Shown piece after piece: positions 1,082-25,594 of a stretch of 32,014 nucleotides of DNA (positions are counted from its first letter, which is position 1; every line of letters begins with the position of its first letter). The notes under the pieces were generated by a model, which saw only the letters and a list, made by a program, of their open reading frames with translations, made no database searches and was not told the origin of the DNA. This DNA is from an uncultured archaeon (GTDB lineage: Archaea > Asgardarchaeota > Lokiarchaeia > Sigyniarchaeales > SOKP01), in contig CAYLZE010000047.1 of assembly GCA_964388035.1 (NCBI GenBank), positions 2,528 to 34,541 of the forward strand, in the 5' to 3' direction. The position numbers were made by a program, and so were the translations under genes.

Positions 1082-2566
1082 TTGATTGGTATCGTTGGGA
1101 AAAATTATGCGACAAATAATGAAGCAATTACAGCTTCATACCTTGCTAAATCCGTCATGGGATTAGAAAGTCAAATACCTGACATTGTTATTCGCCCCAA
1201 ATACGTAGAAGAGATTCGGAAGGTTCTAATTTATTGTTCTCAGGAAAAAATAGCGGTTTCACCTATATCTGCGGGGCTTTCTGGAGGATTTGCTTGTCCA
1301 ACTATTAAGCCAGCAGGTGTGTTGCTTGATTTAAGCAGAATGGACAGGATTTTAGAAATTGATGAGAAAAATAGAATCCTTATTATTGAACCGGGAGTTA
1401 CGTGCGGTCAAATTTGGGCTTACATGCATAAGAATTATCCCGAGTGGGCACCACCAATTCCCGATGGAGCTCCACCTGCTGCGACAGTGATGGGGGATGC
1501 AATAGAACGAGGCTTTTCGCTTTATACTTCGAGTGTAGGTCCACAAGGTGACAACTTTATGTGTGCTGAAGTTGTATTTCCAAACGGAGATATTTTGCGA
1601 ACTGGTTCATGGGCATTACCTTTTGCTAAACCCTTCTATAAATATGGATTAGGACCGGATCTTTGGTCAATATTAATGGGGAGTCAAGGTACTATGGGAG
1701 TAGTTACTAAAGCAGCATTGAAGATGTTTCCACATCCGGATTTTAAAACGATCGTTAATTGGGGAATGGGAAATCCGCAAGATATGCAAAATGTTACATT
1801 TGAAATTGCTAAGCAAGAATTTGGAATAGCTCATAATACAGTAATGGTTCAAGGTGGAAACTACGCTATTGCAATGTGTAGATGGCCAAAGGATAAAATT
1901 CCTCATGATTATAAGTTCTTTGAAGAAAAGGGCTATCCCCTGTGGTGGATGAATTGGGAAATCTGGGCACAAACACAGAGGGAACTGGATTTTTGCGTTG
2001 AAACTGTAAATCTGTTATGTAATAAATTTAAAAATTCAAATCAATGTCGAGATCCAGAGACCATGAAACCTATAGAGCTTCATCCCAAACAAATAGCAAG
2101 TCGGTTAAAAAAACCAAATAAAATTGCAGTACCCTATAGTTTATGGGAAGCGGGCTTTTTATTTATAACTTGGTATACTCCTTGGAATGATTGTGCTCAT
2201 TTTGCGGAAATGTACAACGCAGCATTGGAAAAATATGAGTTTCCTCCCGTAATGTGGATTGCAAGTATTGAACGATGCCGTCAAGCCATTTGCATGCCGA
2301 TCGTCTGTTTTGACTCAATTTTCTGCAACTCAAAGTGTTCAGAAAGAGGTTCCAAAACGGAAGATTTTGAACGAGTTCAAGAGGTAAACAGAGAAACCAC
2401 CGACTATGCCCTCAAACAAGGATGGTTGAATTACAGACCGGATCCTTACGTACATGCTCCTTCCATGTATAGTCAAGCAGGCATGTATTGGAAATACTTG
2501 AGGAAACTGAAAAGAATGGTGGATCCAAATATGATACTTCATCCAGGAAGGTTATGTCTTCCTTAA
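1082..2566 (+). CDS. FAD-linked oxidoreductase (VAO/PCMH/GlcD family); true start probably upstream; candidate in-frame intron at 2319-2351
   Basis: PDIVIRP, LLDLSRMDRILEID, IEPGVT, GSQGTMGVVTKA and C-terminal KLKRMVDPNMILHPG are FAD_binding_4/FAD-oxidase_C family motifs. The frame is open upstream to 1040. Confidence 0.9.
   Translation: MIGIVGKNYATNNEAITASYLAKSVMGLESQIPDIVIRPKYVEEIRKVLIYCSQEKIAVSPISAGLSGGFACPTIKPAGVLLDLSRMDRILEIDEKNRILIIEPGVTCGQIWAYMHKNYPEWAPPIPDGAPPAATVMGDAIERGFSLYTSSVGPQGDNFMCAEVVFPNGDILRTGSWALPFAKPFYKYGLGPDLWSILMGSQGTMGVVTKAALKMFPHPDFKTIVNWGMGNPQDMQNVTFEIAKQEFGIAHNTVMVQGGNYAIAMCRWPKDKIPHDYKFFEEKGYPLWWMNWEIWAQTQRELDFCVETVNLLCNKFKNSNQCRDPETMKPIELHPKQIASRLKKPNKIAVPYSLWEAGFLFITWYTPWNDCAHFAEMYNAALEKYEFPPVMWIASIERCRQAICMPIVCFDSIFCNSKCSERGSKTEDFERVQEVNRETTDYALKQGWLNYRPDPYVHAPSMYSQAGMYWKYLRKLKRMVDPNMILHPGRLCLP
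2319..2351 (+). other. Candidate 33-nt BHB/BHL intron within the oxidoreductase mRNA
   Basis: Outer stem 2304-2312/2353-2361 (9 bp), central helix ACUC/GAGG (3 bp plus A.G), bulges AAU and UUC, inner stem UUUCUG/CAGAAA. Removal is in-frame. Confidence 0.55.
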
Positions 2567-2584: not shown

Positions 2585-3937
2585 ATGACAAAAACTGGAA
2601 TGCAAAAATTAGAAGAACTAAAACCACAAATCTTCATGTGTATCCATTGTAAAGCATGTAAGTACAGTTATTCCGGAGAACCTAGTAGAGAAGGAATTGG
2701 AAAATGGAAAGGAAAGCAAAAAACAATACTCTATGAAGGAATGGTAGATTCTTGTCCTGCAGGGATTGAATACGGATGGGAAGCTTTTTGGAATGCAGGT
2801 AAGATGTGGATAGCACGCTCGATATTAAATGGAGATTTAAAATTTTCAGAAAAGGTGAGAGATACAATTTATCCTTGTATTACTTGTGGTCTATGTTCAA
2901 GCCAATGTGATAATAAAATTCCAACCGTGGATATTCTTGAAAGCATGAGGGCAGCATGCGTTGAATCTGGAGTTCCTTTGATTGAAAAACATCAGCAAAT
3001 CATTAATTTGGTTCAAGAATATAACAACCCCTATGGTGGTAAAGCTAAAGAAAGGTTAAAATGGGCAAAAGATTCTGGTTTCGAGAAATATATTGACAAC
3101 AAGAGTGCAAAGATTGGTTATTATGTAGGATGCACTGCAAGCTATAGACAATTAGATATTGCTGTTTCAACGTGTAATTTACTAGAAAAATTGGGAATAA
3201 ATTTCACATTAATTTCTGATGAGGTCTGTTGTGGAAGTCCCTTTTTTCGAATTGGTGCTATTGATGTTGCTAAAGATCTAATGAACAAGAATCTTGAAAG
3301 TTTTGGAAAGTTAGAGAAAGTATATTTCTCTTGTGCCGGATGCTATAGAACATTTTTTATAGATTATCCAAAATGGAATGAACATCGAGAAATCCCATTT
3401 AAAATGGCCCATACGTTTGAATTAATTTCCGAATTAATCACAGAAGATAAACTCAAGTTTAAAAAAAATAGAGAATTGGAAGGGGAAATCATTACTTATC
3501 ACGATCCATGTCATATAGGAAGACATTTTGGTCTAGAAATTGAACGACGGATAACGGAACAGTCTAAAAACTTAATGCTTGATGCAAGAAAAATTAAAGA
3601 AAAGATTGATAATTGGTTCGAAATTCCAAGGGCCATACTGAAGCAATTGGAACAAGATGTGGGGATTATATTCAAGGAAATGTATCGAATAAAGATGAAT
3701 TCCATGTGTTGCGGAGCGGGTGGAGGGGTCAGAGCTGGGTATCCTGATTTTAGTCTGAGGACCTCGAGTTTACGCTGTGATGAGGCGAATGCTATAGGAG
3801 CAGATATATTAACAACAGAGTGTCCTTTTTGCAAGACAAATTTAAGTGATGCTAATAAATTATATGAACATGGAATGAAAGTGATTGGGTTACTTCAACT
3901 AATTGATGAGTTCGATCTAATGGAACTTTCATTATAA
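2585..3937 (+). CDS. Fe-S oxidoreductase, HdrD/GlpC-like (4Fe-4S dicluster plus two CCG domains)
   Basis: CIHCKAC...CP, CITCGLCSSQC, YYVGC, EVCCGSP, SCAGC, YHDPCHIGR, CCGAGGG, TECPFC. Confidence 0.9.
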   Translation: MTKTGMQKLEELKPQIFMCIHCKACKYSYSGEPSREGIGKWKGKQKTILYEGMVDSCPAGIEYGWEAFWNAGKMWIARSILNGDLKFSEKVRDTIYPCITCGLCSSQCDNKIPTVDILESMRAACVESGVPLIEKHQQIINLVQEYNNPYGGKAKERLKWAKDSGFEKYIDNKSAKIGYYVGCTASYRQLDIAVSTCNLLEKLGINFTLISDEVCCGSPFFRIGAIDVAKDLMNKNLESFGKLEKVYFSCAGCYRTFFIDYPKWNEHREIPFKMAHTFELISELITEDKLKFKKNRELEGEIITYHDPCHIGRHFGLEIERRITEQSKNLMLDARKIKEKIDNWFEIPRAILKQLEQDVGIIFKEMYRIKMNSMCCGAGGGVRAGYPDFSLRTSSLRCDEANAIGADILTTECPFCKTNLSDANKLYEHGMKVIGLLQLIDEFDLMELSL

Positions 3938-24766: not shown

Positions 24767-25594
24767 TTAATTTTTATTGGTTTTAATTTTACCATTCAAT
24801 TTTAGCACTATTTCCTTCGCTTTTTTTAAAACCTCATCCACCATTTCGTCTCCATTTTCTACATTAAAGCAAGTTATGGAGAGTTCCACTTCCACGGAAA
24901 GTCCGACTCTAGGATGGGTTTTAATCCATAGTTGAGGAAATTCTTTTTCTAACTTCGTAACGTGAGGTGCTATTTGAGATTCGCCAATTCCAGAGAAAAT
25001 GAATCCTTTTTGAATGAAAGATCCTTGCTGTTCTTTTAGAATCGGTTTAATAACGGTATTAAACATGGCTTTCATTTCCATGGGGACTCCCGGAAGACAA
25101 TAAATCGTGGTACTTCCTTCTACAATTTTAACTCCGGGAGCTGTTCCACGAACATTTGGCAAAGGAGTAGAGCCCTTGGGAAGGTTCGCCATTTTTTCTC
25201 TTTCGGGAGTCATGCCTTCCATTCTTAAAATACCTTGGGAAACAGCGTTTTCATAAGCCTTTTTAATAGATTGATATGCTTGTTTATCCCGATGAATATC
25301 ACGATTCAATCCCTTGGCAACCCCTTCTAAAGTCATGTCATCAAAAGTCGGACCTTGGACTTAAAGAATTCAATCTTCTTTAATTAATCCACCCGAAGTG
25401 ATGATCATGTCAGGAGCTCTACTTAAAATGTCGTGCAAAGTAAGGGAAATTTCCTCCAAACTATCCCCTATGGTTGTTATTCTCCGTAATTTATGACCGT
25501 ATTTAGTTATTCTCTTTGTCATCCAATAAGAGTTTGTATCTTGAGTTTTTCCTATAAGTATCTCGTTTCCAATTATTAGAAGTTCAACAATCAT
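24767..25594 (-). CDS. cinA: CinA-like molybdopterin-binding (MCF/COG1058) protein, two exons: 25594-25385 and 25354-24767; 265 aa after splicing
   Basis: IGNEILIGKTQDTNS, IGD, TSGGL|GPTFDDMT, REKMANLP, N..GTAPG, LPGVPMEMKAM, GESQIA. Both ORF-track fragments are in the same frame, separated by a 30-nt insert. Confidence 0.9.
25355..25384 (-). other. 30-nt archaeal BHB intron in the cinA-like mRNA
   Basis: Canonical BHB: outer UCGGGU/GUCCGA, central GGAU/GUCC, bulges UA|A and AA|G, inner UUAAAGAA/UUCUUUAA with a 7-nt loop. Contains in-frame TGA and TAA. Confidence 0.9.

Follow-up and report, generated by a model that had tools for sequence, protein, structure and literature searches.

This report concerns a 32,014-nt stretch of DNA, hereafter the window, from the metagenome-derived assembly of a Loki-type Asgard archaeon (GCA_964388035.1, here G000; contig CAYLZE010000047.1, here C47), and within it a gene for a flavin adenine dinucleotide (FAD)-binding oxidoreductase on the forward strand (1082-2566). 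Inside this gene, the segment at 2319-2351 (33 nt, in frame and free of stop codons) is probably a mini-intron of the bulge-helix-bulge (BHB), or tRNA, type that would be spliced out of the oxidoreductase mRNA; the probability of this reading is put at about 75%. Read through, the segment translates as IFCNSKCSERG within an open reading frame (ORF) of 494 residues, and the spliced product would have 483 residues, the length of the close relatives of the protein.

The borders of the insert are defined by comparison with related genes, independently of any RNA structure. In an alignment of 43 homologues (41-81% identity), an 11-residue gap falls exactly at IFCNSKCSERG in all 42 others, as an earlier note on this sequence had predicted for the orthologues, and the outcome that the note had named as fatal, an equivalent peptide kept by orthologues, is seen in none of them. 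The 14 other members of the window protein's 90% cluster (81-88% identical) all lack the insert and read FDS-TK, and among 113 full-length homologues IFCNSKCSERG is the sole unique internal insert within conserved sequence. At the DNA level, 29 orthologous loci taken from 61 related genomes were compared; the sequence abuts at the insert site in 28 of them, and a structure-blind nucleotide alignment (MAFFT, 30 orthologous genes) singles out exactly 2319-2351 as the insert. Joining A2318 to C2352 creates ACC (Thr, A^CC), the residue present in all 14 closest relatives, where the read-through frame encodes Ser, and excision yields ...VCFDS-T-KTEDFERV. Cuts at the two bulges of the predicted RNA fold thus remove precisely the inserted bases, as the earlier note had proposed, rebuild the Thr codon and restore the uninterrupted sequence of the intron-less relatives.

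The insert does not resemble a dispersed repeat. A miniature inverted-repeat transposable element or a REP-like (repetitive extragenic palindromic) element would be expected in many dispersed copies, and a blastn-short search of the insert against its own genome returns only two gene copies, the one on C47 and a second on contig C10. Pattern scans for the intron stem in metagenome and genome contig collections give no match, and no intron-less DNA allele is seen in the contigs of the four best DNA runs. Fold-back duplication was considered as an origin and rejected, because its product would be a perfect palindrome, without the two staggered 3-nt bulges.

The predicted fold brings together exon bases from both sides of the insert. 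In the outer helix (h), the 5' exon strand UCUGUUUUG (2304-2312) pairs with the 3' exon strand CAAAACGGA (2353-2361) over nine contiguous pairs, one of them G-U. The central helix (H) is formed by the exon strand ACUC (2313-2316) and the intron strand GAGG (2346-2349), with three pairs and an A.G mismatch where A2313 lies opposite G2349 (x||| in the scorer's notation). It is bordered by a 5' bulge, AAU (2317-2319), with the predicted cut between 2318 and 2319, and by a 3' bulge, UUC (2350-2352), with the predicted cut between 2351 and 2352. The inner hairpin (h', 2320-2345) consists of six pairs (2320-2325/2340-2345), a bulged C2326, three further pairs (2327-2329/2337-2339) and a 7-nt loop (2330-2336). 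All of these elements lie on the forward strand, and the earlier note had given the coordinates and letters of helices, bulges and stem, and the 33 nt to be removed, without error. With only three central pairs (A2313/G2349 being unpaired), the window insert falls outside the canonical hBHBh' class, as does its copy on C10. It belongs to the relaxed BHB class by its 3/4 central pairs, its 3-nt bulges and its outer helix of 9 bp and inner helix of 6(+3) bp, at least one flanking helix being required for membership here to avoid a chance-prone definition. RNAfold assigns the segment 2300-2365 an energy of -18.8 kcal/mol (z = -2.79), a stability reached by 2 of 200 shuffled sequences. Its minimum-energy structure retains both long helices and slightly shifts the register of the short central one, so that the structure drawn in the earlier note is recovered in its long helices but not in the register of the central one.

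Taken by itself, such a fold says little. The motif scanner used here has a fixed 3-4-3 geometry and puts each cut behind the second base of the bulge; applied to the whole genome with minima of 3 pairs in the central, 9 in the outer and 6 in the inner helix, it finds 73 BHB motifs against 78 of the mirror-image topology. None of the thresholds tried gives an excess over mirror images, and the motif is unusable as evidence or as a census tool on its own. The weight of the fold comes from its position. Across the genome, BHB motifs of this quality occur at a rate of about 2e-7 per site and length, so a fold that coincides with independently defined borders lies far beyond chance. Within the oxidoreductase gene, a much weaker threshold at an insert length of 33 is reached at only 2 of 1405 positions, and when the insert is shuffled in place, the observed fold quality is reached in 3 of 10,000 trials. 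The exons also contribute: at the site of the outer helix (Cys-Phe-Asp and Thr-Lys codons), intron-less orthologues form 0-5 contiguous pairs and the window 9 of 9. The partial complementarity already present in such exons is compatible with two histories, in which the intron either entered a predisposed site or had its exon sequence tuned afterwards.

A second copy of the insert indicates which of its features are maintained. In a paralogous operon on contig C10 of the same assembly, the oxidoreductase holds the same 33-nt in-frame insert (about 71610-71642; locus L044:1311-1343), read there as NFCNLECSERG, with four base differences from the window's insert; the two oxidoreductase genes are 75% identical at the DNA level. 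Across the 66-nt fold there are seven differences, and all 21 of 21 pairs form in both copies. One difference lies outside the fold, one in the 5' bulge (its third base), three in the 7-nt loop and two in the exon helix, where both keep the pair (position 2353, C in the window and U in C10, G-C to G-U; position 2359, G and A, U-G to U-A). At the unpaired position 2319, which is thus free to vary, the window has U and C10 has A. All nine pairs of the inner hairpin are identical between the copies, whereas three of the seven loop bases differ. The structure is in this sense conserved between two diverged copies in a way that neither the bases nor the peptide are. As codons, the four intron differences amount to three replacements (I/N, S/L and K/E), while the eight conserved intron 'codons' show no synonymous difference (0/8); among codons for identical residues, 19 of 49 are changed within the 60 flanking codons and 175 of 347 across the whole gene. 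This pattern is a signature of constraint on the RNA fold rather than on the peptide, of modest weight since it comes from two sequences (p = ~0.005-0.02 by estimate). A stretch of about 100 N, possibly a scaffold gap, lies in the C10 oxidoreductase downstream of ...MYWKY.

The gene tree places the window copy as sister to an intron-less gene of another genome (G032), and the C10 copy with an intron-less gene of the same-genus genome G001. The position of both copies beside intron-less genes suggests that this lineage acquired the intron and that it then moved between the paralogues. Exon sequence coding for K-T-E-D is common to the two intron-bearing copies and occurs in no other homologue, and the C10 copy has the Arg of DFERVQ, which is typical of the window's clade; these features hint at conversion from the window copy to C10, the direction being tentative. 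The intron would then have been copied between the paralogous operons together with a short flank of exon. Two oxidoreductase copies in different clades of the tree also occur in genomes of genus g7 (G018 and G032), so either the operon duplication predates the window's genus or several of the bins are mixtures.

The genome encodes enzymes suited to such a substrate. Two EndA paralogues of about 200 residues each are present (contigs C146:8038-8646 and C33:37574-38176). The C146 protein is closest to the catalytic alpha subunit of A. pernix, keeps the catalytic His and aligns through the Crenarchaea-specific loop (CSL, also L1), with residues equivalent to K44 and R46; the beta-like C33 protein has Ser at the position of the catalytic His. 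The pair suggests an (alpha-beta)2 enzyme, the architecture with an L1 loop that has been assigned to Asgard archaea (PMC5829648). The CSL/L1 loop confers broad specificity, namely cleavage of relaxed motifs and of motifs outside the tRNA context (PMC3241643), and the type of EndA, which the earlier note had raised as a question bearing on relaxed motifs, is thus the broad-specificity one as judged from the genes and these two studies. RtcB, the RNA ligase, is encoded on contig C23.

Together these components outline a mechanism. In the transcript, exon bases 2304-2316 and 2352-2361 would fold with the intron into the relaxed BHB, the (alpha-beta)2 EndA would cut after the second base of each bulge (after 2318 and after 2351), and RtcB would ligate the exons to give FDS-T-KTEDFERV, the 483-residue form that all relatives encode directly. 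The predicted spliced junctions are GACUCAA joined to CCAAAACGG for the window and GACUCAA joined to CUAAAACAG for the C10 copy. An unspliced message would instead yield a protein with an 11-residue surface loop. Because the intron length is a multiple of three and no stop codon is present, gene callers miss it, and incomplete splicing may be tolerated; two protein forms might then arise from spliced and unspliced mRNA.

Inserts of the same size occur elsewhere in the family. Four more, of 30-34 nt, lie at other sites of the oxidoreductase in two other genomes of the same family, and in all four a BHB-like fold sits at borders whose joining gives back the consensus protein. In G006, a genome of a different genus (locus L026, G006:C138), a 32-nt insert at about 1265-1296 of the gene breaks the frame and carries a stop codon. 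It has a canonical BHB, with central strands UUCG/CGAA, bulges AUA and AAA and a 9-bp inner helix, and lies 4 nt upstream of the window's insert site. A second insert of the same gene (34 nt, about 1156-1189) breaks the frame and has a relaxed motif with an 8-bp exon helix; the G006 oxidoreductase is intact after removal of both. Compared by eye, the sequence of the window intron is not convincingly similar to that of the nearby 32-nt G006 intron, and the two are therefore treated as independent gains. In G015 (locus L024, G015:C299), two 30-nt inserts at about 1162-1191 and 1351-1380 of the gene are in frame, stop-free and BHB-like, and their borders restore FPPVMWI and YRPDPYIH; they are further candidates for cryptic introns.

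Comparable inserts are also found in other genes of the window's own genome. The cinA gene in the window contains, on the reverse strand, a frame-breaking 30-nt insert (25355-25384) with a canonical BHB (4/4 central pairs, GGAU/GUCC, with 6 bp in the outer and 8 bp in the inner helix); the motif scan recovers it as an insert without which the ORF is whole again. The central helix of the oxidoreductase insert is weaker than this one (x||| against 4/4), and the earlier note had ranked the two cases in the same order. The only CTP synthase gene of the genome, pyrG, is split by a frame-breaking 31-nt insert (contig C37:632-662); in the best BHB that would restore the frame, the outermost central-helix position is mismatched, as in the window insert, and splicing would give DFG-T-YERFLG. 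The second-best frame-restoring motif, of 31 nt, lies on contig C199 (1791-1821), with a 4/4 central helix (UGUC/GGCA), an outer helix of 6 bp and an inner helix of 7 bp. The gene for uL16 is likewise split (MAHRRPWHCY and ARWTRRPY, with about 31 nt between them), and this split does not fit the fixed 3-4-3 register. A census of ORF-fusing motifs gives 115 true against 131 mirror-image cases, a signal swamped by neighbouring genes in different frames, from which only cinA and a few others stand out. For in-frame motifs with 4/4 central pairs and both readings open, the counts are 137 true and 124 mirror-image, with no detectable excess. The cinA and pyrG inserts break the frame, must be removed and are visible as split genes, whereas the window insert is silent at the ORF level.

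Several observations weigh against a spliced intron at this site. BHB-like motifs of equal quality are no commoner in the genome than their mirror images, the central helix has 3/4 pairs, and two registers are nearly equal to the proposed one, namely that of RNAfold and a frame-breaking one of 35 nt. The bulge on the 3' side, UUC, is rich in pyrimidines, while the other inserts examined have A-rich 3' bulges. A preprint on Asgard tRNA introns (bioRxiv 10.64898/2026.10.13.758758) warns that the relaxed class is prone to chance matches when flanking helices are not required. The two copies show G-U intermediates but no pair in which both bases have changed in compensation. Three of the five independent inserts in the family are in frame and stop-free, against a rough expectation of about 15% for random lengths at this composition. 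The insert can be translated, and in the AlphaFold model it forms a loop with a predicted local distance difference test (pLDDT) score below 50 between a confident strand (401-409) and a confident helix (426-445), so that it is plausible that the read-through protein folds. Finally, contamination of the assembly amounts to 7%, and in composition the contig of the window lies at its periphery; as far as GC content and tetranucleotides show, the C47 and C10 copies might come from two co-binned relatives rather than from one cell.

Three other explanations of the insert have to be set against splicing. It might be a translated, lineage-specific loop of 11 residues, perhaps hairpin-forming or derived from an intron, such that the protein carries IFCNSKCSERG and its paralogue NFCNLECSERG. 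The open frame, the modelled loop, the pattern F-C-N-x-x-C-S-E-R-G common to both copies and the excess of in-frame, stop-free inserts among the five origins all speak for such a loop. It is nevertheless unlikely: no other homologue among the 113 tolerates an insert at this site, the eight conserved codons lack the synonymous changes seen in the flanks, which points to constraint on RNA, and the changes within the intron all fall at unpaired bases and produce non-conservative replacements. A translated loop would also leave the BHB geometry exactly at the borders as a coincidence of the order of 3e-4 to 1e-6, and frame-breaking inserts of a similar kind are present in an orthologue as well as in the cinA and pyrG genes of the window's genome.

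A structured RNA element of another kind within a translated insert, such as a nuclease or protein binding site or a pausing hairpin, would account for the conservation of the helices between the copies and for a fold stabler than its shuffles, and it would agree with the lack of genome-wide enrichment over mirror images, the BHB appearance being incidental. Under this explanation, which appears quite improbable, the staggered 3-nt bulges would fall exactly at the insert borders, and removal would restore the ancestral codon, by accident; the relatives manage without any such element, and no Rfam or other family is implicated, none having been searched for. That the insert is an artefact of assembly or binning, absent from the organism's DNA, is hardly credible. 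The source is a fragmented bin of 211 contigs with the contamination given above, but a 605-base contig from a public DNA run (X1) spans 2083-2687, including the insert, with no difference, a contig from another run (X2) begins within the insert, and the second, diverged copy lies on a different contig.

Splicing of a BHB intron accounts best for the agreement of borders, fold and second copy. The modelled loop and the three in-frame inserts among five suggest that splicing is perhaps not fully efficient and that introns which are harmless when retained persist more easily. A wider proposal is possible, though on balance doubtful: Asgard archaea may harbour hidden, in-frame, stop-free introns of the tRNA type that are partly spliced, giving two protein forms, and that spread between paralogues by homing-like conversion together with a tuned exon flank. 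Partial splicing, if true, would be an archaeal counterpart of intron retention.

The closest known system is the cbf5 pre-mRNA intron of the crenarchaeal orders Desulfurococcales and Sulfolobales, a short BHB intron in coding sequence, often relaxed, for which splicing has been demonstrated; these introns are attributed to a broad-specificity hetero-tetrameric EndA, show patchy gain and loss among relatives and in some cases likewise have lengths that are multiples of three, the one in Staphylothermus measuring 36 bp (PMC2738675 and studies cited there). The window intron shares with them its shortness, its place in an archaeal protein gene, the relaxed BHB, the patchy distribution and the presumed type of endonuclease. 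It differs in its host, an Asgard FAD oxidoreductase (PF01565), which places it outside the orthologous cbf5 intron family, and its splicing is predicted. Unlike cbf5 introns, it has no stop and therefore escapes gene callers, it occurs in two paralogues with a shared exon flank, and it is one of many such inserts in its genome, whereas cbf5 is a single conserved case. With the tRNA introns of Asgard archaea (bioRxiv 10.64898/2026.10.13.758758; PMC5829648) it has in common the presumed (alpha-beta)2 EndA with L1/CSL, the size range, the 3/4 central pairs and repeated independent gains at sites where exon sequence can supply half of the motif. In contrast to these, its host is an mRNA, the motif's exon half consists of codons (Cys-Phe-Asp and Thr-Lys-Thr-Glu), and selection acts at a second level through the reading frame. 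The term 'mRNA' has no occurrence in the tRNA-intron preprint. In the literature searched, no BHB intron is described in the coding sequence of an Asgard archaeon, and cbf5 is the only published case of such introns in coding sequence. The structure-preserving second copy and the probable transfer between paralogues appear to be new.

The oxidoreductase gene belongs to a low-GC genome assembly of 5.47 Mb. Its 1082-2566 reading frame comes from the ORF list, its product is of the PCMH/VAO type and GlcD-like (Pfam PF01565, E = 2e-20), and a homologue search retrieves 332 sequences, mostly from Asgard archaea. The downstream partner gene (2585-3937, forward strand) encodes a CCG cysteine-rich domain and a 4Fe-4S dicluster domain (PF02754 and PF13183; GlcF/HdrD-like). 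It has been duplicated along with the oxidoreductase on C10, where translation gives an identical gene order. The start of the oxidoreductase is uncertain: the region 1028-1060 reads ATG AGT TGA TGA AAA ATA TCA TAT AAA, and the relatives start with MSYK or (L)KISYK. With A4 in place of the A5 run, translation from an ATG at 1036 would begin MKISYK. The alternatives are a homopolymer error or frameshift in this region and a true start at the TTG at 1082, with 14 residues fewer.

In conclusion, many endonuclease-dependent introns appear to be present in the coding sequences of one member of the Asgard archaea, the closest archaeal relatives of eukaryotes. Such introns can escape gene prediction, so that Asgard proteins in databases may contain 'insertions' that are not translated, which bears on the annotation quality of the Asgard proteomes used for studies of eukaryogenesis. 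In the oxidoreductase, selection seems to keep the RNA fold and not the peptide, and the intron appears to have moved between paralogues together with the exon bases that complete its splice motif, a case that bears on how introns may colonize coding sequence before a spliceosome exists.

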